The notes under the pieces are model-generated. The model did not search any database. It saw nothing but the letters and a program-made list of their open reading frames with translations, and was not told the DNA's origin. From contig JACWDM010000004.1 in assembly GCA_014654065.1 (NCBI GenBank), forward strand, positions 31,080 to 95,079: a DNA stretch of 64,000 bases, given 5' to 3'. The stretch's first letter is position 1, and each line of letters starts with the position of its first letter. Position numbers and translations under genes: made by a program. This document shows, piece after piece, positions 1-26,886 of the stretch. The DNA comes from Pelagibacterales bacterium SAG-MED15 (GTDB taxonomy: Bacteria > Pseudomonadota > Alphaproteobacteria > Pelagibacterales > Pelagibacteraceae).

Positions 1-151
1 CTCCACGCAACACTGCTTTTGTAACAACCATTTCTGTATATAGCATTACATTCTTGCTTATAAGTCTTAAAAAATATCTATCATGACGATCGGTACAATC
101 CATCATGGGAGCAACTGAAATTTTTCTATTAATTTTATTTTTAGTATCCAA
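1..151 (-). CDS. dusA: tRNA-dihydrouridine synthase A, N-terminal fragment; the gene continues past the left edge
   Basis: The reverse-strand translation reads (start)[49 protein letters not shown]. This matches the conserved DusA N-terminus (APMxDxTDRHxRYF...LYTEM). TTG at 151-149 is the only start candidate between an upstream in-frame TAA and the APMMD block. It overlaps the dctM stop region by 11 nt. The ORF is too short to appear in the ORF track. Confidence 0.7.
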
Positions 152-1472
152 GAGGTTTACCCATTATTTTATCTGGTAGCCATGTCACTATCTCAGGAAA
201 AATACATAAAATTAGTATAGCCAACGCCATTATAATCATAAATGGTATAGAACCTTTTAATATTTCAGACAAGCTCACGTCTGGAGTAATTCCTTTTATT
301 ATATAAAGATTTAATCCTACGGGTGGTGTAATTAATCCTATTTCCATATTAATAGTAAATACAATTGCAAACCAATAAGGGTCGAAGCCTAAAGTTGTTA
401 TAACTGGTAATAATATCGCTGAAGTCATTACAATAACTGCAACTGGAGGTAAAAAGAAACCAGCTATTAACAGAAATATATTTATTAAAATAAATACGAC
501 CCATTTGTTAGAGCTTAATTCCACCATACTCTGTGCTAAAGACTGAGTTACGTAAAGTTGAGATAGGGTAAATGCGAAAAGATAAGAGGCTGCAATAATA
601 AACATTATCATTACACTTTCTTTCATCGATACTTTAACAATATTCCATATTTTTTTTGGCTGATAAATTTTGTAGACAACTGCAATTAATACAAATACTA
701 AGAATGCTCCAACACCTGAAGCCTCGGAAGGTGTAGCAACACCTCCATACAGAACATATAAAACTCCAGCTATAATAGCTAAAAAAGGTAAAATTCTTGG
801 TAGTACTTCAAGTTTTTCTTTTAAAGTCGGAGGTTTTCTGTTCTTTAAAGCTTTTGCAGAGTCCTTATCAATAAAATAGCTATGTATGAGTGCCCATATC
901 GCAAACATTCCCGCTAACATGAAGCCTGGTATTAAGCCACATAAAAACAATCTTCCAATAGATGTACCAGTTGCAATTCCATAAACTATTAAAACAATAC
1001 TTGGTGGTATTAAAACTCCTAAAGTTCCTCCGGCTGCAATAGTGCCGGTAGCTATTTGATCTGAATATCCCCTTTTTCTCATTTCAGGAATTCCCATAGT
1101 TCCAATTGCAGCACAAGTTGCAGGACTTGATCCACTTAAAGCAGCAAAAATTGAGCAAGCACCTATATTAGAAATTACTAAACCCCCCGGGACTCTCCAC
1201 AACCATCTATCTAAACCTGTATATAAATCTTTCCCTGCTGGAGAATTGGCTACAGCCATTCCCATTAAAATAAACATTGGTATTGAAAGTAAAACAAATG
1301 AATTAAGTCCTGCATAGAATGTTTCTGCGAAAACATCTAGCATTTGAAAACCTTCGAATGAAACAAGAAGGACTATAGAAACAAAGCATAGTCCAAAGGC
1401 AATTGGGATTCCAGAAAAAAGTACTATTAAAGTAAATACCGCAACTATAATGGCAATTATAAGTGGATCCAT
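141..1472 (-). CDS. dctM: TRAP transporter large permease subunit (DctM family)
   Basis: 443 aa polytopic membrane protein with DctM-like composition and length. Its ATG shares 1 nt with the dctQ stop (TAATG). It sits in dctP-dctQ-dctM order. Confidence 0.9.
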
Positions 1473-1966
1473 TAATTGTAATCCTTCGAGTCAGTTAATT
1501 TTATAATTTCAGCAATATATTGAAGTATCATTAATATAGCCCCGATCATCATCGAGGAATAAGGTATCCAAAGAGGTGGGTCCCAAACTGTACCTGTCGA
1601 ATAGTTTTTTGTAAAAGCTTCTTCAACCATTAAAAACCCAAAATAAAATAAAATTAAAAAAAATAATAAGCTTAACAATGAGGTGAAAATTTTTAATCTA
1701 ATTATATTTTTACTAGATAGAAAATCATATATCCATTCCATGCTAACATGGGCCTTTTCACTAAGGACATAGGCACTACCAATAAACGTAGAGGCAACTA
1801 AAAGCATTGTAACCAACTCTGTTTGCCAAGTAATAGCTCTTTGAAAGAAATATCTTTCAAAAACTAATTCAACTATAACTAAAATAGATAATAGCAATGC
1901 TAAGACAGCAAAAGCACCACATGCCTTCGCCAAAAAATCACAAATCTGTAAATATTTTTTTTTCAT
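1472..1966 (-). CDS. dctQ: TRAP transporter small permease subunit (DctQ family)
   Basis: 164 aa with four hydrophobic segments, lying between the DctP-like and DctM-like genes. Confidence 0.8.
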   Translation of the reverse strand: MKKKYLQICDFLAKACGAFAVLALLLSILVIVELVFERYFFQRAITWQTELVTMLLVASTFIGSAYVLSEKAHVSMEWIYDFLSSKNIIRLKIFTSLLSLLFFLILFYFGFLMVEEAFTKNYSTGTVWDPPLWIPYSSMMIGAILMILQYIAEIIKLTDSKDYN

Positions 1967-2000
1967 AAAAAAACCCCTATTTATAGAATAAATAGGGGTT
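1967..2000 (-). terminator. Intercistronic hairpin plus U-tract between dctP and dctQ; a partial terminator or attenuator
   Basis: The 10-bp inverted repeat cccctattta (1974-1983) / taaatagggg (1989-1998) has a 5-nt loop. On the transcribed (minus) strand it is followed by a run of 7 U (1973-1967) that directly abuts the dctQ ATG (1966). Confidence 0.5.
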
Positions 2001-2014
2001 CTTTATATATTCTT

Positions 2015-3025
2015 TTATTTAACTGATAAAGCCATTTCCATCAGCTTGTCGCCACCTGGCACTTTTTCAGCAAATGCTTTGTGTGAAGACTTCTTCGCAA
2101 TCTCTACCCATGCAGCATGGTCTTTTGCATCCATATATACTAACTTAACACCTGCAGCTTTGTAAGCATCTTCAAACTTTTTATCTAAGTTTTCCACTTG
2201 TGCTGTCATATATTTTTCAGCTTTTTTTCCAGCTTTCATTAAAGCCTTTTGTTGCTTAGAGTTCAATGCATCAAAAGATTTTTGTGACATAAGTATTGGT
2301 TCGTACATAAACCATAAACCAAATTTTCCTGGAGGAGTTGCGCATGAAACTTGTTCATAAATTTTGTAACTTACAAAACTTCCAGAACTAGTATTAGCAC
2401 CTGTCAATACACCAGTTTGTAAACCAGTATATATCTCTGATGAAGGCATACTTTGAATTCCTGCTCCTGCTTCCTCTAACATTTGGTTGAATGCTTTACC
2501 TGCAGCTCTCATAACTTGTCCTTTAGCGTCACTAGGATTTTTTATACATTTAGTTTTTGAAGCAAAACCACCTCCTAACCAAGCATCAGATAAAACAACT
2601 ACACCAGCATCATTTATAATTTTTTTAATTTCAGTCATCATTGGACCTTTATTAAATCTTAATGCGTGCTTATGATTTTTAACTGTTCCTGGCATTAAAG
2701 TTGCGTCAAATTCTGGATGGAATTTAGATGCATAAGCTAATGGAAAAGCAGAAATATCCAATTGACCAGTTGTCATTGGTTTCCACTGTTCTTTAGGTTT
2801 ATATAATGATTTAGCTGGATAAATTCTAATATCTATTCCAACGTTTGCTTTTTTAACCTCATCTGCAATGATCTGAACCATCTCATGACGTGGATCGTAT
2901 GATCCATCAGCTCTTTGAGTTCCTGGCCACTGATGACTTGCTTTTAACGTTACAGCATAAGCAGAACCAATAGTAGATAGAACAAAAACTAATGAAGTTA
3001 AATATAAAGATATTTTTTTTAACAT
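2015..3025 (-). CDS. dctP: TRAP transporter substrate-binding protein (DctP family); ligand unknown
   Basis: 336 aa with an N-terminal signal peptide (MLKKISLYLTSLVFVLSTIGSAYA) and DctP-like length, at the first position of the TRAP operon. Confidence 0.88.
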   Translation of the reverse strand: MLKKISLYLTSLVFVLSTIGSAYAVTLKASHQWPGTQRADGSYDPRHEMVQIIADEVKKANVGIDIRIYPAKSLYKPKEQWKPMTTGQLDISAFPLAYASKFHPEFDATLMPGTVKNHKHALRFNKGPMMTEIKKIINDAGVVVLSDAWLGGGFASKTKCIKNPSDAKGQVMRAAGKAFNQMLEEAGAGIQSMPSSEIYTGLQTGVLTGANTSSGSFVSYKIYEQVSCATPPGKFGLWFMYEPILMSQKSFDALNSKQQKALMKAGKKAEKYMTAQVENLDKKFEDAYKAAGVKLVYMDAKDHAAWVEIAKKSSHKAFAEKVPGGDKLMEMALSVK

Positions 3026-3108
3026 TGTTATCTCCCCTGTTGTTATTTAATTAATGCATTAAAATAAAGATATTGATAAGAGTCAATACTACAAAGTACA
3101 CTATAATT

Positions 3109-4251
3109 ATGGATGGACCTTTAAAAAACCTTTTAGTTGTTGATTTAACTAGAGTTCTAGTTGGACCTTACTGCACAATGATTTTATCTGACTTAGGAGC
3201 AAGAGTTATAAAAATCGAAGCTCCTGAAATTGGAGATGACTCTCGAAAATTTGGTCCTTTTATTGATGACTATTCTGCATACTTCATGTCTTTGAATAGA
3301 GGTAAAGAAAGTATTGCATTAAATTTAAAAAATGCAGACGACAAAAAAATTTTTGAAAAAATTTTATCGAAAGCAGATATTCTAGTTGAAAACTTTAAAC
3401 CTGGCACCTTAGAAAAATGGGGTTATGGATGGAAAGATGTGAATAAAAAATATCCAAAACTTATTTATGCGTCAGCGTCTGGTTTTGGTCAAACAGGTCC
3501 ACTAAAAGAACTTCCTGCTTATGATATGGTAGTGCAAGGCATGGGTGGTTTGATGAGTGTAACTGGTCAACCAAATTCTGAACCTACTAGAGTTGGAACG
3601 TCTATTGGAGATATTACAGCAGGATTATTTACAGCTATAGGAATTAACGCAGCACTTTATGATAGGCAAAAAACTGGTAAAGGAATGTTTATTGATGTTT
3701 CAATGTTAGATTGTCAAATTGCAATTTTAGAAAATGCAATTGCAAGATATCTTGCAAAGAATGAAATACCAAAACCTATGGGGTCACGTCATCCTTCTAT
3801 TGCACCATTTGAAGCTTTTAAAACTAAAGATAGCCATATTATAATCGCAGCTGGTAATGACAAATTATTTGAAAAACTTTGTAACCTTCTTGAGATGCCT
3901 GAAATAAGTAAAGATCAAAAATTTTCTGATAATTCATCAAGAGCAAAAAATATGGATGAACTTAAAAAAGTTCTTGAAAATAAATTATTAAGCAAACAAA
4001 CCAATGAATGGGTTAAAGAGATGGAGAAAGAAAAAATACCATGTGGGCCTATATTTAATATTAAAGAAGCTGTTGAAAATCCTCAGGTGGATGCAAGAAA
4101 CATGATAGTAAAAGCTTATCATAAGGTAATTGGTGATTTTAAATTAGCAGGGAATCCTATTAAAATGTCAACTTATAAAGATGAAAAAACACGTGGCGAT
4201 ATACCAGATCTTGACGAACATAGAGAGAAAATATTAAAAGAATTCAATTAA
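3109..4251 (+). CDS. Class III CoA-transferase (CaiB/BaiF family)
   Basis: N-terminal LKNLLVVDLTRVLVGPYCTMILSDLGARVIKIE, plus the blocks NRGKESIALNLK, VENFKPGTL and GTSIGDITAG, are typical of family III CoA-transferases. I prefer ATG at 3109 (MDGPLKN) over the track's TTG at 3073. Confidence 0.85.
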   Translation: MDGPLKNLLVVDLTRVLVGPYCTMILSDLGARVIKIEAPEIGDDSRKFGPFIDDYSAYFMSLNRGKESIALNLKNADDKKIFEKILSKADILVENFKPGTLEKWGYGWKDVNKKYPKLIYASASGFGQTGPLKELPAYDMVVQGMGGLMSVTGQPNSEPTRVGTSIGDITAGLFTAIGINAALYDRQKTGKGMFIDVSMLDCQIAILENAIARYLAKNEIPKPMGSRHPSIAPFEAFKTKDSHIIIAAGNDKLFEKLCNLLEMPEISKDQKFSDNSSRAKNMDELKKVLENKLLSKQTNEWVKEMEKEKIPCGPIFNIKEAVENPQVDARNMIVKAYHKVIGDFKLAGNPIKMSTYKDEKTRGDIPDLDEHREKILKEFN

Positions 4252-4276
4252 AAATATATAATGGATTTTAATATTT

Positions 4277-5707
4277 ATGATGGATAAAAAAAAGTTTTAT
4301 ATTAACGGTGAATGGGTCAATCCTGTAAAGGAAAATAATTTTGAAGTTATAAATCCTTCTACAGAGGAAATTAGTGCTATAATCTCATTGGGAAGTTCGG
4401 ACGATACCAATATAGCTGTTAAGGCTGCAAAAAAATCTTTTGAGACATGGAAAGAAACTTCTAAAGATGAAAGAATTAAATTATTAGAAAAATTATTGGA
4501 AATTTATAATTCAAGATGGGATGATATGACTAATGCTATCACTACTGAATTAGGTTGTCCTAAAGATTGGTGCTCAGCAAATCAAACAGCATCAGGTGCG
4601 GGGCATATAGAAGATTTTATCAAAAGACTAAAAGAATTTAATTTTGAACCAGGTTTTGATAAAGGTTCTGTTAATCATATTGTTTATGAACCAATAGGAG
4701 TTTGTGGTCTGATTACTCCTTGGAATTGGCCTATAAATCAAATTGCACTTAAAGTTATTCCTGCTTTAGCAACTGGCTGTACAATGATTTTGAAACCTTC
4801 AGAGATTGCTCCATTATCTGGCATGCTTTTTGCTGAAATGATACATGATGCCGGCTTTCCTGCTGGTGTATTTAACTTAGTAAATGGTGATGGTCCTGGT
4901 GTTGGCACAGATTTGTCGGGTCATCCTGATGTAGAAATGATTTCATTCACTGGATCAACAAGAGCTGGAAAGTTAATAACTAAAAATGCTGCTGATACAA
5001 TTAAAAGAGTTTGTTTAGAGCTTGGTGGTAAAGGAGGAAATATTGTCTTTGCAGACGCGTATCCTGATGCTGTCAGAGATGGTATTCGAAATGTAATGAG
5101 TAATTCAGGACAATCCTGTGATGCACCAACTAGGATGTTAGTAGAAAAATCTATTTACAGCCGTGCAGTCGAGGAAGCTGCAGATGAAGCAAATAAAATT
5201 AAAGTTGATTTAGCTAATAAGTCAGGTGACCATATAGGCCCAGTAGTATCAAAAACACAGTATGATAAAATACAAAGTTTAATTAAAAGTGGTATTGAGG
5301 AAGGAGCTAAATTAGTTGCAGGAGGTCCAGATAAACCGGAAGATTTAAAAAAAGGATATTTTATAAAACCTACTATATTTGCAGATGTTAAAAATAGTAT
5401 GAGAATAGCCAAAGAAGAAATTTTTGGTCCCGTCTTGTCAATAATGCCATTCGAAAACGAAGAGGAAGCGATTCAGATTACTAATGATACTGAATATGGA
5501 CTTGGAAATTATTTTCAAACCGAAGATAAAGAAAAAGCTAAAAGAGTAGCTAAAAAACTAAGATCTGGAATTGTTTATGTTAATCATAAACCCGCGGACT
5601 CTGGAACACCTTTTGGTGGGTATAGACAATCAGGTAACGGAAGAGAAGGTGGTAATTGGGGATTACACGAATATTTGGAAGTCAAAACAATTACAGAGTG
5701 GAAGTAG
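4277..5707 (+). CDS. NAD(P)-dependent aldehyde dehydrogenase
   Basis: 476 aa with ALDH motifs FTGSTRAGK, ELGGKG and the catalytic-Cys block NSGQSCDAPTR. Substrate is not assignable; betaine aldehyde, semialdehydes and others are possible. Confidence 0.9.
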   Translation: MMDKKKFYINGEWVNPVKENNFEVINPSTEEISAIISLGSSDDTNIAVKAAKKSFETWKETSKDERIKLLEKLLEIYNSRWDDMTNAITTELGCPKDWCSANQTASGAGHIEDFIKRLKEFNFEPGFDKGSVNHIVYEPIGVCGLITPWNWPINQIALKVIPALATGCTMILKPSEIAPLSGMLFAEMIHDAGFPAGVFNLVNGDGPGVGTDLSGHPDVEMISFTGSTRAGKLITKNAADTIKRVCLELGGKGGNIVFADAYPDAVRDGIRNVMSNSGQSCDAPTRMLVEKSIYSRAVEEAADEANKIKVDLANKSGDHIGPVVSKTQYDKIQSLIKSGIEEGAKLVAGGPDKPEDLKKGYFIKPTIFADVKNSMRIAKEEIFGPVLSIMPFENEEEAIQITNDTEYGLGNYFQTEDKEKAKRVAKKLRSGIVYVNHKPADSGTPFGGYRQSGNGREGGNWGLHEYLEVKTITEWK

Positions 5708-5725
5708 TCAACTAAGGGAGGAAAT

Positions 5726-6109
5726 GTGATTGGGTATGTTATGGTTGGTACAAGCAATCTTGAAAAAGCAATTAAGTTTTACGATGAAATTCTTAAAGTT
5801 TTAGATTTAAAGAGAATTGATACGGATGATGTTTGTGCAGGATATGGTGCAAAGGATGGACCTGGGTTAATAGAATTCTATGTTACTCTTCCTTTTAATA
5901 AAAAAGACGCTACTGGGGGTAACGGTACACAAGTTTCTTTCATAACAAATTCGAGATCAACTGTAGATAAATTTCACGAAATTGGTTTAAAAATAGGTGG
6001 AAAGAGTGAAGGTTCAGGCGGTGAAAGACCTGATGGATCTGGAGTTTATTATTCTTATATTCGAGACTTAGATGGCAATAAGATCTGTGCATTCACAAAT
6101 AACAAATAA
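5726..6109 (+). CDS. VOC / glyoxalase-bleomycin resistance family protein
   Basis: 127 aa with a VOC-like N-terminus (IGYVMVGTSNLEKAIKFYDEIL) and C-terminal YIRDLDGNKI. The GTG start is preceded by aagggagg. Confidence 0.7.
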   Translation: MIGYVMVGTSNLEKAIKFYDEILKVLDLKRIDTDDVCAGYGAKDGPGLIEFYVTLPFNKKDATGGNGTQVSFITNSRSTVDKFHEIGLKIGGKSEGSGGERPDGSGVYYSYIRDLDGNKICAFTNNK

Positions 6110-6117
6110 ACACTAAA

Positions 6118-7038
6118 ATGTCTTACTCTAATATAAAAAAAAAATTAGAGAGTGGCCAAGTAGTAATTTTAGATGGAGCTCTGGGTGCTGAATTAGAAAA
6201 AGTAGGAGCTCCAATGGATAAAAATCTATGGGTGGGTAAATGCTCTAATGATCGTCCTGATCTTGTTTTAAAAGTCCATGAAAAATATATTGAAGCTGGG
6301 GCAGATGTAATAACAACAAATACATATGCATTAGCACCAGTATCTATGAAACAGCATGGATATCAAGACAATATAACTAATTGGAATTTAAAAAGTGTTG
6401 AGATTGCAAAAGCCGCAGCTAAAAATAGTAAATCCGAAGTTATAGTTGCAGGTTCAATATCTACTTATGGTAGTTGGTATAGATTGGGGCAAGATACTCT
6501 TAAAAAAAATTTTGAAGAACATTTAAAAATTTTAGGTGATACAGGTATTGACTTAATTATTTTAGAAGCAATGACATCAGAAGTAGATACAGTAAAAACT
6601 CTTATTAATTGTTCAGAAAAAGTAAATTTACCTACTTGGCTTTCTGTTTCTTGTGCATTTGATGAAGAAACAAATAAAGTAATGCTCGGGTATCAAGAAA
6701 GTATTGGAAATACAAAAGCTGAAATATATGAAGATTTTGATAAAGCTATTAAACAATTTAGTTCATTGCATGATGGCCCAATACTAATAGCACATTCAGA
6801 TATCAAAATTATAAACGATGCTATTAAGATTATTAAAAATAATCATAAAGGCTTTATAGGAACTTATCCAAATAACGGATATTTTGAGAAACCACACTGG
6901 AAATCAGTTGAAAGCTTTACTCCTGAAAATTATTTAAATGAGGCAAAGTCTTGGGTCAAAAATGGATCTCAAATAATCGGGGGATGTTGTGGAGTAGGAC
7001 CAGACTTAATAAAACCTTTATCGACATTAAAACAATGA
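6118..7038 (+). CDS. Homocysteine S-methyltransferase family protein (MmuM/BHMT-like)
   Basis: 306 aa with VVILDGALGAELEK at the N-terminus, ITTNTY, and the C-terminal zinc-ligand block GGCCGVGP characteristic of the Hcy-binding domain. Confidence 0.85.
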   Translation: MSYSNIKKKLESGQVVILDGALGAELEKVGAPMDKNLWVGKCSNDRPDLVLKVHEKYIEAGADVITTNTYALAPVSMKQHGYQDNITNWNLKSVEIAKAAAKNSKSEVIVAGSISTYGSWYRLGQDTLKKNFEEHLKILGDTGIDLIILEAMTSEVDTVKTLINCSEKVNLPTWLSVSCAFDEETNKVMLGYQESIGNTKAEIYEDFDKAIKQFSSLHDGPILIAHSDIKIINDAIKIIKNNHKGFIGTYPNNGYFEKPHWKSVESFTPENYLNEAKSWVKNGSQIIGGCCGVGPDLIKPLSTLKQ

Positions 7039-7628
7039 GCAAAACTGAAGAAATTTTTGATAAAGCAAAAAATGAAATTCAAAATTTATGGAATAATAAC
7101 AATGAACTTTCTAATTTCGTTAAATTTCCAGATAATTTAATTTTAAAAAATATTAAATCTAAAAGAGCCCCCGTTACAAATAAACTTTTTAATTGGAGGG
7201 AAAAACTAAATACCAATCATACAGACTTACATCTAGCAATTAGTGACTTATCTCCTTATGTTAATTGGGAGCAAGGATATGAGGAAAAAGAAGTTGGTAA
7301 AGATTTTTTAAGTAAATATGGTTTTTTTGAATTAATAGGTCCTACAGGACATTATGAAACTTCGAAAATGGCTTTATATGTTAATTTTCTAGACCAAAAT
7401 GCTTATTATCCATGGCATAATCATGAGGCTGAGGAATTATATTTCATAGTATCAGGTAAAGCTAAATTTGAATGCAAAGATCAAAATATAGAAATATTAT
7501 CATCAACAAAAACAAGACTTCATAAAAGTTTTCAACCACACGCAATTACAACAATTGAAAATCAAGTATTAAGTTTTGTAATTTGGAAAAATAAATTTGA
7601 GAATGTATCAAAAATGATAAAAGGATAA
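7035..7628 (+). CDS. dddQ: Cupin-fold protein resembling the DMSP lyase DddQ
   Basis: Cupin motif 1 is WHNHEAEELYFIVSG (HxHx3Ex6G), with a second His block LHKSFQPHAI. The upstream block YGFFELIGPTGHY matches what I recall of DddQ (YGYFEL.GP.GH). The start is taken at ATG 7035, giving an ATGA overlap with the upstream stop, not at the track's 6951. Confidence 0.6.
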   Translation: MSKTEEIFDKAKNEIQNLWNNNNELSNFVKFPDNLILKNIKSKRAPVTNKLFNWREKLNTNHTDLHLAISDLSPYVNWEQGYEEKEVGKDFLSKYGFFELIGPTGHYETSKMALYVNFLDQNAYYPWHNHEAEELYFIVSGKAKFECKDQNIEILSSTKTRLHKSFQPHAITTIENQVLSFVIWKNKFENVSKMIKG

Positions 7629-7633
7629 GTTTT

Positions 7634-8533
7634 TTATTGCTTACTTACATTTTCTTTTGGAGATAAAACTACAGCAACTACTCCACCTATAATTATCAAA
7701 GAACATCCAACAATCTGTCGCCACCCAAATGGTTCGTCTGTAAGAATACTAGAGCTTACAGCACCGACTATAATTTCTGATAAAAAAAGAATTGAACATA
7801 TCCCTGCTCCTATTTGAGTTGGGGCCCATAGTATTACGATTCCAGTGGGGATAAAGTAAAAAACCGAAATAAGAACCAAGAAAGTAGTCATTGAAATAAA
7901 TGCATCAATAGATGGTACTGGCCCAAGATAATCAACAAGTAAAAGACCTGCTACAATGTTGAACAACGTTCCGTAGACGAAAAAACCAAAAATTATTGGA
8001 AATACACCATCAGTTTTAATAACTTCTAATCTGATCATTCCTCCAGCAAACATAATTCCACCTGTAAGAGCTAACCAGTCTCCTGCATTTTTTGGTAAAG
8101 GAATATTTCCTCCTTGGCCAAAAACTACCCATAATCCACCAAGAGCTAAACTTAAACTGACAACTCGTTGCCAACCATGTCTTTTTTTTAAAAAAATCAT
8201 TTCAAAAATAGTTGTCCAAACTGGAGTCATGTAAAACATTATTAAAGCTCTAACCACATCAGTTAAAAGAAAACTTAATGCGTAACATATAAACCCTCCT
8301 CCAATTAAAATTCCCATTGCTGGAAATTCAAATCCTGTATCTCTTTTTTTAATTAATCTCCAAATTGCAATGGGTAATAATATCAAGGTACCAATTATCA
8401 TCTGAGATATTGTGCCCCAACCTCCAGTCAAACCACCATCCTCTAGAATTCTTTGTGGCAACCAATATATTCCCCAAGCACCTGCTGAAACTGCTAGTGC
8501 AACTGAAATCTTATAATGGTGTGGGTGTCTCAT
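7634..8533 (-). CDS. DMT superfamily (EamA-like) transporter
   Basis: 299 aa with about 10 hydrophobic segments. ATGA overlap with the amidase stop. Confidence 0.75.
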   Translation of the reverse strand: MRHPHHYKISVALAVSAGAWGIYWLPQRILEDGGLTGGWGTISQMIIGTLILLPIAIWRLIKKRDTGFEFPAMGILIGGGFICYALSFLLTDVVRALIMFYMTPVWTTIFEMIFLKKRHGWQRVVSLSLALGGLWVVFGQGGNIPLPKNAGDWLALTGGIMFAGGMIRLEVIKTDGVFPIIFGFFVYGTLFNIVAGLLLVDYLGPVPSIDAFISMTTFLVLISVFYFIPTGIVILWAPTQIGAGICSILFLSEIIVGAVSSSILTDEPFGWRQIVGCSLIIIGGVVAVVLSPKENVSKQ

Positions 8534-9945
8534 GTTAATTTAGGTTTATTCTTACTAAAATTAAAAGCTTTTTCATACATATTTGCAAAATTAAATACCT
8601 TCAAATCATCTTTATTCCTTCCAATGATTTGCATTCCCATTGGCATCCCATCTTTATTGAAACCAACTGGTATTGTAATGGTTGGTAATTCTAAAAGACT
8701 AGATAATATAAAAACTTCTAACCAACGATGATAGGTATCTAATTCGATATTATTAATATTTTTTGGATATTGTAAATTTTTATCAAAAGGAAAAATTTGA
8801 GCTGATGGCAATGCTAAAAAATCAAAATTTTGAAAAATTAAATTTATTTGACTTAAATATTGTTGTTTTAGATCTAGGGCTAATCGTATTTCCTCAGATT
8901 TAATTTCTTTACCTTTGTTATATTCCCAGATTGCCTGATATGTCATTGTATTAATATCTGAAATATTCATAGCTAAAGTATCTTCATATATACTTTTAGC
9001 TCTTAATATGGTCCAGCTATTCCATAAAATATCAGTATTTATTTTTGGCTTAAGTAATTCTACTTTAATATTTATTTTTTCTAAATCTTTCAGTTTATTT
9101 TCACAAATTGTTAATATATCTTTTTCTATATTGTAGTTCCCATTCATATTTGACAACCATCCAATTTTAAATGCTGAAAATTCTTTATCACTTATATTTT
9201 GGTTTTTAAACGAACCGCTTAGGTCGAATGAAAATTTATCTAATGAATCACTTCCAGCAATTTCATCTAGTAAAATCGACATATTATTCGGATTTGTCGC
9301 AAAACATCCTGGTGTTGTAAGTATAGGTAAGTCTAAATTTTGGTTAGTACGATCTACTGGAATTAAACCTGGTGTGGGTCTAAAACCATAAATATTTGCG
9401 TATGCTGCAGGTCCTCGACACGATCCCATCTGATCTGTACCATCTGCAAATGGTAATAATCCAGCAGCAACAGCTGAGCTCGCTCCCCCACTCGATCCGG
9501 CAGCAGATTTTGATAAATCGTAAACATTTGAAGTTGGTCCAAAAAGTCTATTAATTGTATGGCCTCCAACGCCAAGCTCTGCTGTATTTGTTTTCCCAAT
9601 AATAATTGCTCCTTTGTTAATTAATCTATTTACAAATAATGAATTTTTTTTAGGTTGATTATTTTTTGATCCAGGAAAACCGTAAGTTGTTTTAAATCCT
9701 ACTACATCTGTTAGATCCTTAATTGCAATAGGTAATCCATTTAAAGATTTATCAATTTCTTTAGCTTTATCCTTTTCAATTGCCTCTTTTATTATTAATT
9801 CTCGATCTTTTTGAAGAACAATCGCATTTAAATCAGGATTTAATTTTTCAATTCTATCCAAATAATATTCAACAACTTCTTTAATTGAAATTTGACGACT
9901 TTTAATTATATTTTGTAATTCTTTTACTGATTGGCTTTCCAGCAT
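8530..9945 (-). CDS. Amidase-signature family amidase
   Basis: 471 aa with the GGSSGG-type signature (AAGSSGGASSAVAAG) and the KTNTAELG / IAIKD blocks. Confidence 0.85.
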   Translation of the reverse strand: MLESQSVKELQNIIKSRQISIKEVVEYYLDRIEKLNPDLNAIVLQKDRELIIKEAIEKDKAKEIDKSLNGLPIAIKDLTDVVGFKTTYGFPGSKNNQPKKNSLFVNRLINKGAIIIGKTNTAELGVGGHTINRLFGPTSNVYDLSKSAAGSSGGASSAVAAGLLPFADGTDQMGSCRGPAAYANIYGFRPTPGLIPVDRTNQNLDLPILTTPGCFATNPNNMSILLDEIAGSDSLDKFSFDLSGSFKNQNISDKEFSAFKIGWLSNMNGNYNIEKDILTICENKLKDLEKINIKVELLKPKINTDILWNSWTILRAKSIYEDTLAMNISDINTMTYQAIWEYNKGKEIKSEEIRLALDLKQQYLSQINLIFQNFDFLALPSAQIFPFDKNLQYPKNINNIELDTYHRWLEVFILSSLLELPTITIPVGFNKDGMPMGMQIIGRNKDDLKVFNFANMYEKAFNFSKNKPKLT

Positions 9946-9951
9946 AAAAAC

Positions 9952-11142
9952 TTATCTAGCTTTTTTGATGCTTTGCATGACCATCTCTTTCATATCCTCA
10001 TAAGAAGCTTTTTTTGGATTAGTTGCATAAGCTTGGTCCTTCATTGCCTTCTCTGCAATTCGATCTACGCAGTCTTCGGTTACTCCTATTTCACTTAAAC
10101 TTTTAGGTATTTGGAGTCTGTCTAACATTTTTTCAATATTGTTTATAAAAGAGCCAATTGAATGATCTTTAAATTGCATTGCTTCTGACATACGTTTAAC
10201 TTTTTCGTCCATGTCGTACAGATTATATTTTAGAACAACTGGTAATATGATTGCATTAGTTAATCCATGTTGTGTATTAAATTCTGCACCAACCATGTGA
10301 GATATAGAATGAACGTTGCCAAGTCCTTTTAAGAAAGCTACTCCACCTAAGTAAGAACCAATATGCATCCCTCCTCTCGCTATTAAATTCTTAGGTTCTT
10401 CAACCGCCAAGTAAAGAGATTTTGAAATTAAAGATAAGCTTTCTAAAGCAGAGCCATCACATAATGGGTGAAATCCAGGAACACAATAACCTTCTATTGC
10501 ATGGACCATTGCATCAACTCCTGTCCACGCTGTTAATGAAGATGGTAATCCTAAAGTTAACTCTGGATCAACTAAAGCTAGAACGGGTCTTACATCTGGA
10601 TGCCACATACAAAATTTCATTCCCTCTTTTAAATAAGTAACCATAGCTGTAATTTCTGTTTCTGCACCTGTACCTGCTGTAGTTGGTATAGTTATTATTT
10701 TAGGAAATGGGTTGTCTTTACTTATCTTTGGTGGCGTTAACTCAAATTCGAAATCTCTAAGTGGTATATCGTTATTTGCTGTGAGGCATATCAATTTACC
10801 TCCATCCATTGCACTACCACCACCAATAGCAATTATTGAGTCATGATTTCCATTTTTATATTTTTTACAACCAGCTGATATTTCATCCTCTCTAGGATTG
10901 GGGGATATTTCAGAAAATAGGTCAGATTTTATATTTGCTTTAAATAAAAGTTCTTTTAATTCGTTAATAAAAGGTAATTTGGTGCTTCCATTATCTGTGA
11001 CAATTAAAGGATTTCTTATTCCAAATTTATTACATTGATCACCGATTTCTTTGAATCTACCAGGCCCATAAGCGGTATTAGTTGGAAAAGTCCAATCTTG
11101 ATTTGATAAAATTTCAGTTTCGTTTAGTTTAAAATTTTGCAT
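9952..11142 (-). CDS. Iron-containing (group III) alcohol dehydrogenase
   Basis: 396 aa with the blocks IAIGGGSAMDGGK, PTTAGTGAE and VHAIEGY / HSISHMVG (metal ligands). Confidence 0.85.
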   Translation of the reverse strand: MQNFKLNETEILSNQDWTFPTNTAYGPGRFKEIGDQCNKFGIRNPLIVTDNGSTKLPFINELKELLFKANIKSDLFSEISPNPREDEISAGCKKYKNGNHDSIIAIGGGSAMDGGKLICLTANNDIPLRDFEFELTPPKISKDNPFPKIITIPTTAGTGAETEITAMVTYLKEGMKFCMWHPDVRPVLALVDPELTLGLPSSLTAWTGVDAMVHAIEGYCVPGFHPLCDGSALESLSLISKSLYLAVEEPKNLIARGGMHIGSYLGGVAFLKGLGNVHSISHMVGAEFNTQHGLTNAIILPVVLKYNLYDMDEKVKRMSEAMQFKDHSIGSFINNIEKMLDRLQIPKSLSEIGVTEDCVDRIAEKAMKDQAYATNPKKASYEDMKEMVMQSIKKAR

Positions 11143-11191
11143 TTTTGTATCAATAAGTTAATTATATACTACCAATTATATCAAAAAGTAA

Positions 11192-12124
11192 ATGAAGAAT
11201 TCATCAGTAAAATCTAATTCAAGGATTATTTATCTCTCAGTTGGTTCAATGTTTCTTGGAGTTCTTTTTATTGATATTTATGGAATAATTGTCAAATTTT
11301 TGGGTGATACATATTCAACTAATCAAATGGTTTTATTTAGAAATTTGTTCGCAATTATACCTCTGCTAGCATTAATTTTTTACACAAATGAAAACTTAAA
11401 AATTTTTAAAAATTTGACCAAGAAATTTATTATTCTTTGTTTTGTAAGGGGTTTTTGTTTTTTATTTATGAATGTGTTTTATTTTATCGCAATAAATAAT
11501 ATGGATTTTGCAACTGCGTCTACATTAACATTTTCTGCAACATTTTTTATTGTGATCTTATCTATATTTTTTTTAAATGATAAAGTTGGTATTTATAGAT
11601 GGTCAGCAGTGATAATAGGTTTTCTTGGTGTAGCCATGATAATGAAACCAACAAGTGATATTTTTTCTTATTACTCTATTTACCCTCTTATGGTTGGTTT
11701 TTTATATGCTGTTGCAATTATAATTCTTAAATTTATACCTAAATATAATTCAACGGCAAAAATTCAGTTCTATTCTTTGATAGCTTCTATTTTTGGTGCA
11801 GTTATTCTTTTGGCTATCACATTCGATAATAAATTTATCCAAAGTTATAAAGATTTATTAATGTTGGTATCAATTGGTATTTTGGGTGGAGCTGCTGGTA
11901 TTCTTTTCATTTATTCTTACAGATTGATTGAAGCTAGTAAGCTTGCTGTGTTTGAATATTTGGCAATACCCTCTTCATTCTTTCTCGGATGGTTTTTTTT
12001 TAATGAAGCTCCAATTGATCAACTATTTCCAGGTGTATTAGGAATTATTTTTGCAGGAATGATTATTATTTGGAGAGACAAAAAAAAGAAGAGAACTTTT
12101 AAAGTAAGTAAAAAAGTTTATTAA
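11192..12124 (+). CDS. DMT superfamily (EamA-like) transporter
   Basis: 310 aa with about 10 TM segments, divergent from the Fe-ADH/amidase/DMT operon. Confidence 0.75.
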   Translation: MKNSSVKSNSRIIYLSVGSMFLGVLFIDIYGIIVKFLGDTYSTNQMVLFRNLFAIIPLLALIFYTNENLKIFKNLTKKFIILCFVRGFCFLFMNVFYFIAINNMDFATASTLTFSATFFIVILSIFFLNDKVGIYRWSAVIIGFLGVAMIMKPTSDIFSYYSIYPLMVGFLYAVAIIILKFIPKYNSTAKIQFYSLIASIFGAVILLAITFDNKFIQSYKDLLMLVSIGILGGAAGILFIYSYRLIEASKLAVFEYLAIPSSFFLGWFFFNEAPIDQLFPGVLGIIFAGMIIIWRDKKKKRTFKVSKKVY

Positions 12125-13167
12125 ACTTTTGATTTCATTGACTGCATAACAATCGATCTATCAATTTCACCTAGTAACTTTCCAGATGAAGAGCAAACTA
12201 CTGGATAAGCTTGATCTCCTTCGCTTAATTGATCTATCAAAGTTTCGATTTTTAAATTATCTTCAATGCAGTTTACTTTATTTTCATATAACTTCTTTGC
12301 TTCAGTTGAGCATTCTTTTCTCATTACTTTTCCTGCACTAAGAACTTTATATTTTGGAACATCTTCACAAAAATCTTTTACATATTGGTCTTTTGGATTT
12401 GATACTATTTCTTCCGGTGTTCCTATTTGTGAAATTTCACCATCTTTCATTATAGCTATGTGATCGCCCATCTTGATTGCTTCTAAAAAATCATGCGTAA
12501 TAAAAACCATAGTTCTTTGAAGTTTTTCTTGAATTTTTAAAAGCTCATCTTGCATTTCCCTTCTAATAAGTGGATCTAATGCAGAAAATGGTTCATCAAA
12601 AATTAAAATTTCGGGATCTACTGCTAATGCTCTTGCTAACCCTACTCTTTGTTGCATACCACCTGAAAGCTCTCTTGGATAATTATTCTGCCATCCATCT
12701 AATCCAACCATTTTTAAAACTTCCATAGATTTTTCTAACCTAATATCTTTTTTTGTTCCTCTGACTTCTAATCCGTATCCAATATTTTCTATAACTGTTC
12801 TGTGTGGAAAAAGTCCAAAATGTTGAAACACCATACTCATTTTATTTCTTCTTAACTCTAACAAATCTTTGGCGCTCATTTTAGTTACATCAACATCATC
12901 CATTTTTACTGTGCCTGAAGTAGGCTCTATCAATCTAGAAATACATCTTACCAAAGTAGATTTTCCACTTCCTGATAAACCCATTACCACAAAAGTTTCA
13001 CCCTTTTGAATTGAAAAACTAACATCCTTAACTGCAACAACATGGCCAGTTTTTTCCTGAACTTCTTTAATAGAGAGGCTTGAGTCTAGATTTTTTATTA
13101 TTGTCTTTTCATCTGGGCCAAATAACTTCCAAATATTTGAACAGGTAATCTTTTGGTCTTTATTCAT
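12121..13167 (-). CDS. proV: Glycine betaine/proline-type ABC transporter ATP-binding protein
   Basis: Walker A GLSGSGKST, signature LSGGMQQRVGLARAL, Walker B ILIFDEPFSALD, and a C-terminal regulatory extension as in ProV/OpuAA. Confidence 0.9.
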   Translation of the reverse strand: MNKDQKITCSNIWKLFGPDEKTIIKNLDSSLSIKEVQEKTGHVVAVKDVSFSIQKGETFVVMGLSGSGKSTLVRCISRLIEPTSGTVKMDDVDVTKMSAKDLLELRRNKMSMVFQHFGLFPHRTVIENIGYGLEVRGTKKDIRLEKSMEVLKMVGLDGWQNNYPRELSGGMQQRVGLARALAVDPEILIFDEPFSALDPLIRREMQDELLKIQEKLQRTMVFITHDFLEAIKMGDHIAIMKDGEISQIGTPEEIVSNPKDQYVKDFCEDVPKYKVLSAGKVMRKECSTEAKKLYENKVNCIEDNLKIETLIDQLSEGDQAYPVVCSSSGKLLGEIDRSIVMQSMKSKV

Positions 13168-13246
13168 TCTTAAAACTTATAATTTATTGTTAACATACAC
13201 AATATTTTGCTTTAAAAGTAAATTTAATTATTCTAATTTTATAAAT

Positions 13247-15361
13247 ATGTCTAGTAGCACTGAAATCTTAGGAAAATCTAACCAGTCAAAAAACTTAATA
13301 ACTTATTCGATAATTGGTATAGTTTTTTTAATAGCTTTATGGCTTTCATCACAAAGTGAAGGCCCTTCAAAATTTCCAAAATTTGTTACAGACGAATTTA
13401 CATTTACTGCGTGGGTTAACGAAGGAGAAGATTTTTTAAAAAAAAATTATAGATGGATCACCAAAATTATAGCTAGCTACATTAAAGCAAGCTATTATTT
13501 TGTTGAAGATTTTTTGCTTGAGTCACCTTGGCTTTTGATAACAGCAATTATTGTTATTCCATGTATGATCGCTGGGGGTCTTAGATTGGGACTTTACTCA
13601 TTGTTTGTAGTTTATTTTTGGGGTGCAACTGGAATGTGGGAACCTTCTCTCCAGACAGTGGCCTTAATGGGACTTTCTGTTTTACTTTGTGTCTTTTTTG
13701 GATTCATTTTAGGAGTTTTTTGCTCACAAAGCGATAGGTTTGAAAATTTTATGAAACCAGTTTTAGACACTATGCAAGTGATGCCTGCTTTTGTTTATTT
13801 ATTTCCAGCTTTATTTTTTTTCGGCATAGGTGGAGCACCAGCAATTCTAGCTACAATGATTTATGCAATGCCACCGATCATAAGATTAACTAATACTGGT
13901 ATAAGGCAAGTTCCAGCGCAAACAATTGAAAGCGCAACATCTTTTGGTTCAAATAAATTACAACTTTTGTTCAAAATAAAAATTCCGTTATCTTTACCTA
14001 GTATAATGATGGGTATTAATCAGGTCATAATGATGGCGCTTGCGCTTGTAGTGCTTGCTTGTTTTATTGGAGCTGAAGGAATTGGTGGTCAAGTTTGGCA
14101 AGCCATCAGAAGATTAGATGTTGGTTGGGCTATGGAAGGAGGACTTTGTATTTTATTTATGGCAATAATGTTTGATAGATTTAGTATGGCCTTTAGCAAA
14201 GACAAAGAAAGACTTCCATCAGATGTTCAAAAATTCTATTTGCTCCCTCAAAGTTGGGCAAAGTACCAAATAGCTAGACTTATAGAAAAACCCTTAAGTA
14301 TAACTCATGATTTTATGAAATATATTTGTGTATTTATAACGAATTTAATTTCTTACTTTTGCAAATCTTTAATTTCAATATTTAACAAAATATTAGCAGA
14401 AGACATTGGGGAGTTCATAAGTAAGAGATATTACATTATTCCATCTTTTATAGTCTTTTTTATAATAATTTTAATCGATTCATATTTTATAAAAATTGGT
14501 TCTTTTCCTGAAGAATGGAGATTATCAATTAGACAACCAATTACAAACGCTGTGGAAAGCTTAACTGTTAATCCAGGTTTCATTTCTTTTACAAAGGGTT
14601 TAAGAGCATTTGTTTATCTGAACTTACTACGTCCATTAGATGTTTTCTTAACGCACATACCATGGTGGTATACTATGGCTGTCTTTGTTGCATTAGGATA
14701 TATTACTGTAGGAATAAGATTTGCCATTATAACAGCTCTTTTATTATCTTTTATAGGGGCTTGTGGAATTTGGTCTCACTCAATGATAACTTTATCATCA
14801 GTTTTAGTCTCTGTTGCATTATGTTTTGTAATTGGGGTACCTCTTGGAATAATAGCTTCTTACAATGAGAGGTTTAGGAATATTCAGAATGTTGTCTTAG
14901 ATGCAATGCAAACACTTCCTTATTTTTGTTATTTAATTCCTGTACTCATGTTTTTTGGTGGTGGTATTGTCTCTGCTGTTTTGGCAACTGTAATTTATGC
15001 TATACCGCCAATAATAAGACTTACATCACTAGGTTTAACACAAGTATCTGGAACATATTCAGAGGTATCAAGATCATTTGGGGGGACATTAATTCAAACC
15101 TTAAATAAAGTAAAATTTCCATTAGCAGTTCCAAGTTTGGTAATAGGTTTTAACCAGACTGTTATAATGGCATTTGCAATGCAAATTGTTACTCCGCTCA
15201 TAGGTGGAAAGGGACTTGGATTAGAAGTGTTTAATGGCCTGGCTCGATCTGACACTGGAAGAGGCCTAGCCGCAGGTATTGGAATTGTGCTTCTTGCAAT
15301 AATCATAGATAGAATAACTCTCGCGTGGACAAAAAAGCAAAGACAGGCATTAGGTTTATAA
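13247..15361 (+). CDS. proW: Glycine betaine-type ABC permease with two permease domains fused in one polypeptide
   Basis: Two ProW-like modules are present: ...MQVMPAFVYLFPALFFFGIGGAPAILATMIYAMPPIIRLTNTGIRQVP... and ...MQTLPYFCYLIPVLMFFGGGIVSAVLATVIYAIPPIIRLTSLGLTQVS.... ATG 13247 is preferred to the track's TTG at 13187, which lies 19 nt from the divergent proV start. Confidence 0.85.
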   Translation: MSSSTEILGKSNQSKNLITYSIIGIVFLIALWLSSQSEGPSKFPKFVTDEFTFTAWVNEGEDFLKKNYRWITKIIASYIKASYYFVEDFLLESPWLLITAIIVIPCMIAGGLRLGLYSLFVVYFWGATGMWEPSLQTVALMGLSVLLCVFFGFILGVFCSQSDRFENFMKPVLDTMQVMPAFVYLFPALFFFGIGGAPAILATMIYAMPPIIRLTNTGIRQVPAQTIESATSFGSNKLQLLFKIKIPLSLPSIMMGINQVIMMALALVVLACFIGAEGIGGQVWQAIRRLDVGWAMEGGLCILFMAIMFDRFSMAFSKDKERLPSDVQKFYLLPQSWAKYQIARLIEKPLSITHDFMKYICVFITNLISYFCKSLISIFNKILAEDIGEFISKRYYIIPSFIVFFIIILIDSYFIKIGSFPEEWRLSIRQPITNAVESLTVNPGFISFTKGLRAFVYLNLLRPLDVFLTHIPWWYTMAVFVALGYITVGIRFAIITALLLSFIGACGIWSHSMITLSSVLVSVALCFVIGVPLGIIASYNERFRNIQNVVLDAMQTLPYFCYLIPVLMFFGGGIVSAVLATVIYAIPPIIRLTSLGLTQVSGTYSEVSRSFGGTLIQTLNKVKFPLAVPSLVIGFNQTVIMAFAMQIVTPLIGGKGLGLEVFNGLARSDTGRGLAAGIGIVLLAIIIDRITLAWTKKQRQALGL

Positions 15362-15403
15362 AATAAACAAATTAATTAAGAAATTTAGCCATTTTTTGTC
15401 CGG

Positions 15404-15433
15404 TTTACATTTATATAAGTTTTGCACTACAAT
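15404..15433 (+). promoter_or_regulatory. Candidate sigma70-type promoter upstream of proX
   Basis: TTTACA (15404-15409), an 18-nt spacer, then TACAAT (15428-15433), about 30 nt upstream of the RBS gggagg and ATG 15464. AT-rich DNA yields many such matches by chance. Confidence 0.3.
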
Positions 15434-15463
15434 AGTTTTTTTAAATTTAAGGGAGGAAACTTA

Positions 15464-16474: not shown

Positions 16475-16495
16475 CATTTTTAAAACTCTAAAATT

Positions 16496-16526
16496 AAAGG
16501 CCCTTTTTATAAGGGCCTTTTTTTTT
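16496..16526 (+). terminator. Rho-independent terminator after proX
   Basis: Stem aaaggccc (16496-16503) / gggccttt (16513-16520) with a 9-nt loop, followed by a T-run to 16526. Confidence 0.7.
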
Positions 16527-18371: not shown

Positions 18372-18389
18372 TATTAAAGTAATAGGGCT

Positions 18390-21003: not shown

Positions 21004-21038
21004 ATTATTATAATCTAATATAATTCATTATTATTTAA

Positions 21039-21767: not shown

Positions 21768-21768
21768 A

Positions 21769-24193: not shown

Positions 24194-24212
24194 TTGTTAA
24201 ATTTAGTTTAGA

Positions 24213-24746: not shown

Positions 24747-24787
24747 GCGAGGTATTTATACTCATGAATAAAATAAATCAAGGTATT

Positions 24788-25999: not shown

Positions 26000-26010
26000 A
26001 TAAAAAAATT

Positions 26011-26880: not shown

Positions 26881-26886
26881 TAGAGT

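Follow-up and report, generated by a model that had tools for sequence, protein, structure and literature searches.

Several described systems are related to the left end of a 64,000-nucleotide stretch of DNA from Pelagibacterales bacterium SAG-MED15 (the window, a term used here for the whole of that stretch), where a transporter of the tripartite ATP-independent periplasmic (TRAP) type lies divergent from five genes ending in a homologue of the dimethylsulfoniopropionate (DMSP) lyase DddQ. With the matPQM-matA-matB genes on pSymA of Sinorhizobium meliloti, the locus shares a DctP-type three-component TRAP system (binding proteins 57% identical), linkage to malonyl-CoA decarboxylase (MCD) and a malonate-activating enzyme beside the transporter, but it lacks MatB and GntR, has a divergent class III CoA-transferase instead and has its decarboxylase parted from dctM by Dus and TauE genes. 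The DddQ proteins of Roseobacters (Ruegeria lacuscaerulensis, 4LA2/5JSO; R. pomeroyi, 5CU1; Roseovarius nubinhibens, 4B29) share with the window cupin their Pfam family, full-length fold and metal-binding and catalytic residues, whereas the window protein is 28-35% identical to them, belongs to a SAR11-specific clade, is a single copy rather than one of a tandem pair and has as neighbours a homocysteine S-methyltransferase (HMT), a vicinal oxygen chelate (VOC) protein and an aldehyde dehydrogenase (ALDH) in place of genes for dimethylglycine dehydrogenase (DMGDH)-like, mandelate-racemase-like, Rieske and aminotransferase proteins. The ddd-acu clusters of Halomonas HTNK1 and Alcaligenes combine DddD or DddY with AcuN, AcuK, DddB and DddC. 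Like them, the window has a class III CoA-transferase, an ALDH and an Fe-dependent alcohol dehydrogenase less than 8 kb from a DMSP-lyase-family gene; unlike them, it has no AcuK, its CoA-transferase is of the malonate-cluster type, its ALDH is not of the methylmalonate-semialdehyde type and its lyase gene is optional. The Halomonas genes have been described (bioRxiv 10.1101/161257). Phaeobacter inhibens Bmt and Escherichia coli MmuM resemble the window HMT in covering PF02574 over its full length and in the GGCCG zinc motif, but the window protein scores below the MmuM and BHMT equivalog cut-offs, has its first zinc Cys replaced and is accompanied by no S-adenosylmethionine (SAM)-V riboswitch in an Rfam scan. 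Finally, DddK of HTCC1062 is a cupin-superfamily lyase of DMSP and dimethylsulfoxonium propionate (DMSOP) from the same organism group; it is, however, a minimal cupin of ~130 amino acids (aa) with a template modelling (TM) score of 0.46-0.50 against the predicted fold of the window cupin and no sequence match at E values up to 10.

The window consists of Candidatus Pelagibacter (SAR11) DNA with ~31% G+C and 95% coding density, and its proteins are 99-100% identical to those of the metagenome-assembled genome (MAG) LRMED-231 (comparison locus L001; further comparison loci are numbered likewise). An earlier note, made from the sequence alone, had read positions 141-7628 as a candidate sulfonium/acrylate catabolic module. 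The analysis reported here indicates, with moderate confidence, that the locus is instead a junction between a malonate module (141-4251 together with an MCD gene outside the window) and the start of an island for onium osmolytes (4277-7628). The genes concerned are as follows.

141-1472, minus strand: TRAP large permease, DctM/MatM-like, 443 aa (PF06808, 313 bits; TIGR00786, 350 bits; both above cut-off)
1472-1966, minus strand: TRAP small permease, DctQ/MatQ-like, 164 aa (PF04290, 92 bits)
2015-3025, minus strand: TRAP solute-binding protein DctP, MatP-like, 336 aa (PF03480; Sec signal peptide ending AYA)
3026-3108, no strand: divergent spacer between dctP and the CoA-transferase gene
3109-4251, plus strand: class III CoA-transferase (CoA_transf_3), 380 aa (PF02515, 417 bits)
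4277-5707, plus strand: NAD(P)-dependent ALDH, 476 aa (PF00171, 502 bits), the first gene of the island
5726-6109, plus strand: small VOC/glyoxalase-fold protein, 127 aa (PF00903, 30 bits)
6118-7038, plus strand: PF02574 HMT, 306 aa (169 bits)
7035-7628, plus strand: DddQ-family cupin, 197 aa (PF16867 DMSP_lyase, 69.5 bits against a cut-off of 27)

The eight open reading frames (ORFs) of the earlier note, its 197-aa cupin and its gaps of 25, 18 and 8 nucleotides (nt) and 4-nt overlap were exact, and Pfam confirmed all of the families named.

All three TRAP Pfam families (DctP, DctQ and DctM) were present, and DctM was 97-100% conserved in 13 Pelagibacteraceae loci. The best solved relative of DctP was 4MCO/4MEV (E = 9e-58; next match, 9e-18), and the 4MCO structure has malonate in its site (PMC4086125). 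DctP was 57% identical over 96% of its length to a single match on pSymA of S. meliloti 1021, the record that served as the source of the malonate transporter matPQM for engineered malonate uptake (PMC13134296); the annotated locus of S. meliloti LMB1 consists of a GntR gene adjoining dctP-dctQ-dctM and genes for MCD and malonyl-CoA synthase. In five of five contexts of DctP orthologues outside this SAR11 group (63-68% identical, other marine bacteria), DctPQM was followed by MCD. The activating enzyme beside the orthologous TRAP system was an AMP-binding ligase, with GntR, in L024, L029 and L030 and a divergent class III CoA-transferase in L025-L027 and L028. Among the SAR11 loci, MCD (PF05292) was detected in L001-L004, L008-L010 and L013, two genes past dctM in the order dctP-dctQ-dctM-Dus-TauE-MCD, and it is adjacent in L024-L030 and S. 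meliloti. The last part of the Dus gene occupies bases 2-136 of the window, and matching SAR11 loci place MCD just outside the left edge. No AMP-binding (MatB) or GntR gene was present in the locus, where the class III CoA-transferase takes the divergent position. The TRAP system is thus the orthologue of Sinorhizobium MatPQM, with malonate as its predicted ligand. The earlier attribution of this transporter to a DMSP/acrylate module was not sustained, since DctP is 57% identical to MatP and its orthologues lay with MCD in every context examined, and the ligands then suggested (acrylate, 3-hydroxypropionate or DMSP) give way to a binding protein that is probably specific for an unrelated compound.

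The binding proteins of HTCC1062 have been profiled exhaustively, and its sole TRAP binding protein, SAR11_0864, binds isethionate and 2,3-dihydroxypropane-1-sulfonate and belongs to hpsNOP-type clusters (PMC11485210, PMC12358799, PMC13335735). Identity of the window DctP with SAR11_0864 was considered and rejected by context and solved relatives rather than by direct sequence alignment: SAR11_0864 is hpsNOP-linked, and DctP matched the isethionate binder 8T9T at E = 9e-8 as against 9e-58 for 4MCO. As SAR11_0864 is a different, sulfonate-binding TRAP system, the published survey of SAR11 binding proteins did not cover the window DctP. In a 2025 population study, an MCD gene appears in the list of those that are enriched in SAR11 genera living offshore and subject to strong purifying selection (PMC12636525). 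The 90%-identity cluster of DctP has 1684 members, and the member names retrieved were those of close SAR11 relatives only. No publication that connects SAR11 with the uptake of malonate was returned by a literature search. Should malonate be the ligand, it would be a C3 dicarboxylate of major importance to offshore SAR11 that has not yet been listed among their carbon sources. The locus probably encodes a strongly expressed malonate importer, associated with a form of the mat pathway that relies on a CoA-transferase.

The start of the CoA-transferase was placed at the ATG at 3109 on the basis of the 380-aa orthologue in L025. Its nearest models were oxalate, glutarate and mesaconate CoA-transferases, all below their own cut-offs; its best solved relative was YfdE (4HL6, E = 4e-111), and the catalytic Asp motif SIGDITAG was read in its sequence. 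In L025-L028 (32-34% G+C, SAR11-like), an 80% identical CoA-transferase was divergent from DctPQM-MCD and adjoined rpoZ, with no ALDH, VOC, HMT or DddQ gene there. From this context, the enzyme is predicted to be a succinyl- or acetyl-CoA:malonate CoA-transferase that replaces MatB. Such a replacement would spare two ATP equivalents, which may suit an oligotroph. The earlier note had tied this enzyme to DMSP/acrylate catabolism as AcuN-like. The class III family does match, but the orthologue sits in malonate clusters without DddQ; likeness to AcuN was judged from family and gene context.

The earlier argument also drew on the tight packing of the plus-strand genes. Same-strand gaps in the window had a median of 6 nt and were 25 nt or less in 27 of 40 cases, and convergent genes were separated by -6 to +19 nt. 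Tight spacing is therefore the norm of this genome and weak evidence for a shared pathway; the packing of the five genes did not rise above this background. In a streamlined genome, a shared strand and tight spacing do not define a pathway. The arrangement, whose conservation the earlier note had asked to check, recurred in 15 Pelagibacteraceae genomes by synteny; DddQ proved to be an optional member of the cassette.

By profile, active-site residues and predicted fold, the cupin can be assigned to the DddQ family proper, as the earlier note had suggested, rather than to DddK, DddY or non-Ddd cupins (the direct comparison covered DddQ, DddK and DddY, with DddL and DddW sequences outside it). 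Against all Protein Data Bank (PDB) sequences, strong matches were solely to DddQ (5JSO and 4LA2, E = 1e-30; 4B29, 3e-29; 5CU1, 3e-22), and DddY was matched at E = 0.14. The cupin-type DMSP lyase site consists of an HxHxxxxExY motif 1, a motif 2 His and a Trp, with residue roles as described previously (bioRxiv 10.1101/161257). Residues H128, H130, E134, Y136, H169 and W184 of the window protein aligned with H123, H125, E129, Y131, H163 and W178 of R. lacuscaerulensis DddQ, to which it is 34% identical; these six residues were invariant in 14 SAR11 homologues, and Y125 was also conserved. An AlphaFold (AF2) model (pLDDT 88, pTM 0.86) had the N-terminal helices and cupin barrel of the full-length DddQ fold and superposed over its full length on 4LA2, 5JSP, 4B29 and 5CU1 with TM scores of 0.89-0.93 and root-mean-square deviations of 1.4-1.7 Å, compared to TM scores of 0.54-0.58 for DddY and the lower values given above for DddK. 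The protein is, therefore, predicted to be a metal-dependent DMSP/DMSOP lyase encoded by an accessory gene of the cassette.

A review places dddQ mainly in Roseobacters, names dddK as the SAR11 lyase and describes characterized DddQ enzymes as weak, with a Km of 21-29 mM and a kcat/Km of 32-46 per M per s (PMC11497337). R. pomeroyi DddQ is unselective and cleaves 3-methyl-DMSP ~20 times faster than DMSP (bioRxiv 10.1101/168930). DddQ enzymes favour DMSOP, and all cloned dddQ genes that were tested confer cleavage of both DMSP and DMSOP (PMC10686828). The native substrate of DddQ has been questioned (bioRxiv 10.1101/161257, bioRxiv 10.1101/168930). SAR11 accumulates millimolar DMSP (PMC10030565). 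Ocean gene surveys count the DddQ homologues of SAR11 among the DMSP lyases, yet a literature search returned no assay of one. The locus provides a second, independent DddQ context (HMT, an MsrA alternative and an onium island) that bears on the real substrate of DddQ.

Two DddQ-like clades exist in SAR11, the cassette clade studied here and a second clade 42-50% identical to it. Members of the second clade (L016-L021; e.g., L021 10004-10588) had all catalytic residues and stood alone among housekeeping genes, as in HIMB1412, where the gene lies between 2-oxoglutarate dehydrogenase/lpd genes and ATP synthase genes. The mandelate-racemase-like and DMGDH-like neighbours of Roseobacter dddQ were not observed around the window gene, whose neighbours encode HMT and an EamA permease. 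A Paracoccaceae MAG (L022 9968-11166) contained a tandem pair of DddQ genes that overlap, share 29% identity and are flanked by genes for a DMGDH-like protein, a Zn-dependent alcohol dehydrogenase, two mandelate-racemase-family (MR_MLE) proteins, a class III aminotransferase and a Rieske oxygenase, in agreement with the published Roseobacter dddQ context. A conserved link between DddQ and mandelate racemase in SAR11 and Roseobacters was rejected: MR_MLE occurred in one SAR11 locus, at 20% identity.

The HMT matched positions 1-280 of the 283 of PF02574 and keeps GGCCG; the canonical first zinc Cys ('NC') was absent from all HMTs of SAR11 cassettes. The zinc-site comparison included the window protein, L012 4760-5689 and L080 9819-10811. 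A conserved His in 'ILIAHSD', near the missing Cys, may be a substitute ligand. A second, 330-aa HMT paralogue likewise had no 'NC' Cys and, in common with the cassette HMTs, had a conserved His that follows a hydrophobic strand (ILIAHSD / GIMHTW), and a SAR11 BHMT-like protein (L096 933-1997) keeps the 'GMNCH' Cys. Donors used by the PF02574 family include S-methylmethionine and betaine, and direct formation of methionine from DMSP was reported in 2025 for Phaeobacter Bmt (PMC12366255). The sulfonium flavour that the earlier note had seen in the partner of the cupin was thus supported, as the family uses sulfonium and betaine donors. The window protein is predicted to be a methionine-forming enzyme with a sulfonium or betaine donor and an atypical zinc site. 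A homologue search for contexts outside SAR11 returned close SAR11 relatives only. MsrA, an alternative to DddQ in the position after HMT, also yields methionine, which suggests that the cassette serves in part to supply methionine.

The ALDH reached no NCBIfam equivalog, and its best solved relative was an uncharacterized Bartonella ALDH (3I44, E = 2e-187). The DddC likeness proposed earlier did not hold: the methylmalonate-semialdehyde dehydrogenase (MMSDH) model TIGR01722 gave 252 bits against a cut-off of 448 and ranked 22nd among ALDH models. In spinach betaine-aldehyde dehydrogenase, the onium group is bound by an aromatic box of Y160, W167, W285 and W456. The window ALDH has W, L, S and F at the aligned positions (L for W167, S for W285 and F for W456); with the box lost, a function as betaine- or DMSP-aldehyde dehydrogenase is unsupported. 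The best solved relative of the VOC protein was also uncharacterized (4QB5, E = 3e-15), and VOC followed ALDH in 39 loci.

In L025, L026 and L028, the CoA-transferase gene is followed by rpoZ and genes for a major facilitator superfamily (MFS) transporter, a 3-hydroxyisobutyrate dehydrogenase (HIBADH)-type dehydrogenase and a PNPox-like protein. The same four genes lie at 24213-27486 in the window, 20 kb away, so the intervening sequence is an insertion relative to these genomes. The insertion and the three genes convergent with DddQ, each identified by Pfam and NCBIfam, are as follows.

4252-24212, no strand: ~20-kb insertion relative to L025-type SAR11 genomes
7634-8533, minus strand: EamA permease, convergent neighbour
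8530-9945, minus strand: amidase, convergent neighbour
9952-11142, minus strand: Fe-dependent alcohol dehydrogenase, convergent neighbour

The insertion begins with ALDH-VOC-HMT-DddQ. It also includes the three convergent genes, a second EamA gene, ProV/ProW/OpuAC, a glycerophosphodiesterase (GDPD), a gamma-butyrobetaine-dioxygenase-like protein and a short-chain dehydrogenase/reductase and further contains L-carnitine dehydrogenase, a BKACE enzyme, a class II aldolase, a TauD-like protein and a GMC oxidoreductase (22583-24193). Judged by these genes, the insertion is an island for onium osmolytes. Protein identity among subclade-Ia loci was 97% for TRAP, 90% for CoA-transferase, 88% for ALDH, 75% for VOC, 57% for HMT and 74% for DddQ, values that suit a conserved module with a more rapidly changing island beside it. 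Metatranscriptome contigs in two runs joined 13252 to 19606 with 18 extra bases, which suggests a population variant without the segment from ProW to the carnitine dehydrogenase.

A scan of metagenome contigs for the ALDH gave 80 loci, which were pooled with 15 genome loci. In the pooled set, the gene before ALDH was that of a 313-aa beta-hydroxyacid dehydrogenase at 51 loci and that of the CoA-transferase at 20, and ALDH was often beside DoeA/EutA-like, GDPD, gamma-butyrobetaine-dioxygenase-like, DMGDH-like and BHMT-like genes. The gene after HMT was DddQ, MsrA (PF01625), a beta-lactamase-family gene or the convergent EamA gene. EamA, amidase and Fe-dependent alcohol dehydrogenase genes were syntenic in all loci, with or without DddQ. 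Among loci not chosen for DddQ, it was present in three and absent in at least six; DddQ is optional within the cassette. The independent loci were too few to decide whether DddQ presence correlates with the malonate genes. The ALDH cassette occurred without TRAP and CoA-transferase in L012, L036, L080, L084, L111 and L112, and in L012, L080 and L084 it was directly divergent from MCD; a single deletion, from TauE through the CoA-transferase gene, would produce that arrangement.

Further variation was observed in these loci. MsrA in the position after HMT (L036 7950-8408, L111 9936-10337, L112 6930-7388) was followed by a 387-aa beta-lactamase-family gene. A gene for an HpcH/CitE-like acyl-CoA lyase lay between the beta-lactamase-family gene and EamA in L005 (11780-12643), L013 (11757-12617) and L080 (8835-9695), and an MR_MLE enolase-superfamily gene took its place in L012. 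DoeA-like (E = 7.5e-100 to 6TWK) and EutA-like genes were divergent from beta-hydroxyacid dehydrogenase-ALDH-VOC in L099 (1818-3735), L036 (1340-3253) and L112 (320-2233). This pair recurred in many SAR11 contigs. That both members scored below equivalog cut-offs suggests a related cyclic osmolyte. For the M24 protein next to related ALDH loci, identity as DddP was considered and rejected, as it resembles the ectoine hydrolase DoeA and has an EutA-like partner.

On the established basis of family memberships, orthology, synteny, the insertion and DddQ optionality, the following scheme can be proposed. The MatPQM-type TRAP system would import malonate, and the divergent class III CoA-transferase would convert it to malonyl-CoA with succinyl-CoA or acetyl-CoA as donor, replacing the ATP-consuming MatB. 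MCD, two genes past dctM, would then yield acetyl-CoA and CO2. In the island, HMT would methylate homocysteine to methionine at the expense of a sulfonium or betaine compound (S-methylmethionine or DMSP likeliest); DddQ would act by beta-elimination, at the high intracellular DMSP of SAR11, on DMSP to give dimethyl sulfide (DMS) and acrylate and on DMSOP to give dimethyl sulfoxide (DMSO) and acrylate; and ALDH and VOC may oxidize or detoxify an aldehyde from osmolyte breakdown. Several points weigh against this interpretation. Every ligand and substrate in it is inferred, not measured, and TRAP binding proteins with 57% identity need not share a ligand. The top score of the CoA-transferase is to the oxalate model, although below its cut-off; the HMT is without its canonical first zinc cysteine; characterized DddQ proteins are poor, unselective DMSP lyases whose native substrate has been questioned, and the SAR11 cupin is only about 34% identical to them. 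Furthermore, given the 25-nt gap between the CoA-transferase and ALDH genes and RNA contigs over every plus-strand junction, the five genes may form one transcript and cooperate.

Among the alternatives, one links the two halves through malonate: acrylate, 3-hydroxypropionate or beta-alanine would pass to malonate semialdehyde and, by a non-acylating ALDH, to malonate, which the CoA-transferase and MCD would turn into acetyl-CoA, the TRAP system also scavenging malonate. This chemistry is one step from known acrylate pathways, and an acrylate-to-malonate route of this kind is not known to have been described. The ALDH cassette adjoined a malonate gene (CoA-transferase or MCD) in 18 of 18 DddQ-positive loci, but 15 of the 18 had been chosen for DddQ and the loci are phylogenetically related, and the adjacency of MCD and ALDH follows from the simple deletion described above and is thus not independent evidence. 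The position of ALDH, in other loci, after a beta-hydroxyacid dehydrogenase of the 3-hydroxyisobutyrate/3-hydroxypropionate dehydrogenase family is consistent with this route; however, most ALDH-VOC pairs had betaine, ectoine and glycerophosphodiester genes around them and none for malonate. The earlier observation that an enoyl-CoA hydratase is absent was confirmed: no enoyl-CoA hydratase-family protein, AcuI-type reductase or acyl-CoA ligase (PrpE) was present among the scanned ORFs of the 64-kb window (most of those of at least ~130 aa), and the search there yielded no acrylate-hydrating enzyme for the route. Overall, we regard this alternative as unlikely.

A different substrate for DddQ is also improbable. 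The native substrate would be another onium compound, such as a bulkier beta-sulfonio or beta-ammonio carboxylate, with DMSP cleavage as a side activity and HMT acting on the same or a related compound. The ~20-fold faster cleavage of 3-methyl-DMSP by the unselective R. pomeroyi enzyme (bioRxiv 10.1101/168930) and the preference of DddQ for DMSOP (PMC10686828) are consistent with this, as is the presence of the gene in a betaine/carnitine/choline island without acrylate genes, and Roseobacter dddQ likewise lies among betaine-type genes (bioRxiv 10.1101/161257). Yet no neighbour is orthologous between the contexts in SAR11 and in Roseobacter (the MR_MLE protein being 20% identical and in one SAR11 locus), the active site has the same residues as in DddQ proteins that cleave DMSP, the sequence names no candidate substrate, and the millimolar DMSP of SAR11 (PMC10030565) can make a high-Km lyase physiologically relevant.

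A more elaborate proposal, which we consider very unlikely, treats the HMT-DddQ pair as a branch point, independent of folate, in the use of DMSP or a related sulfonium. By direct methyl transfer from DMSP to homocysteine, HMT would yield methionine and methylmercaptopropionate, DddQ would cleave the surplus, and acrylate carbon would flow through malonate semialdehyde and, by ALDH, malonate to the CoA-transferase and MCD. If true, the HMT branch would meet the need for reduced sulfur of SAR11, the most abundant bacterium in the sea.

The single DMSP/acrylate module of the earlier note, in which TRAP would import DMSP, acrylate or 3-hydroxypropionate, DddQ would release acrylate and the CoA-transferase (as AcuN) and ALDH (as DddC) would act via 3-hydroxypropionate and malonate semialdehyde, keeps a true DddQ homologue with a sulfonium-type partner, a class III CoA-transferase and an ALDH on one strand with short gaps, a nearby Fe-dependent alcohol dehydrogenase of the DddB-type family and an order kept in 15 genomes, but has only a slim chance of being correct, since TRAP and CoA-transferase are orthologous to malonate-cluster genes, belong with these and occur without DddQ, DddQ is optional and replaceable by MsrA, the hydratase, AcuI and PrpE were missing from the scanned ORFs, the ALDH is not MMSDH/DddC-like and short gaps are the genomic norm.

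Expression was assessed for both halves of the junction between malonate module and osmolyte island from the word depth of contigs in three seawater metatranscriptomes, a poor measure of expression whose figures are indicative only. The depth was 3100-5800 for dctP, ~10-190 for dctQM and mostly 1-10 for the plus-strand genes; the OpuAC/betaine-type binding protein of the same window reached 1200-2100, below dctP. A peak of 60-100 at 4880-5166, inside ALDH, compared to ~1-10 on either side, was probably due to cross-mapping from the many 75-79%-identical ALDH paralogues or orthologues of other SAR11 strains. RNA contigs crossed all four plus-strand junctions but also the convergent DddQ/EamA junction at similar depth, and therefore the contigs do not discriminate co-transcription. 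A scan for terminator-like structures detected an element between the dctP stop and the dctQ start.

1972-2000, no strand: perfect palindromic hairpin with a 13-bp stem

Across this hairpin, the RNA contig depth fell 10- to 100-fold (dctP, 300-5800; dctQM, ~10-190), from which an attenuator or mRNA stabilizer is inferred. An alignment of nine subclade-Ia loci revealed a conserved TTGATAAGAGTCAA (a TTGA...TCAA inverted repeat) at 3073-3086 in the spacer between dctP and the CoA-transferase gene, which could be an operator; no regulator gene was present in the locus. A scan for promoters and terminators was uninformative in DNA of 31% G+C (50 promoter-like sites against 62 expected), and the Rfam scan of the window detected no riboswitch and only a tRNA at 47.7 kb.

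Elsewhere in the window, a methionine-salvage/polyamine block at 36293-40581 comprised a SAM decarboxylase/spermidine synthase fusion, an MtnB-like aldolase, MtnA (IF-2B family) and a methylthioadenosine phosphorylase-type gene. At 30316-50322, genes for glycosyltransferases, sugar-nucleotide enzymes and methyltransferases form a long run that contains the tRNA (47690-47763) and resembles a hypervariable cell-surface region of SAR11.

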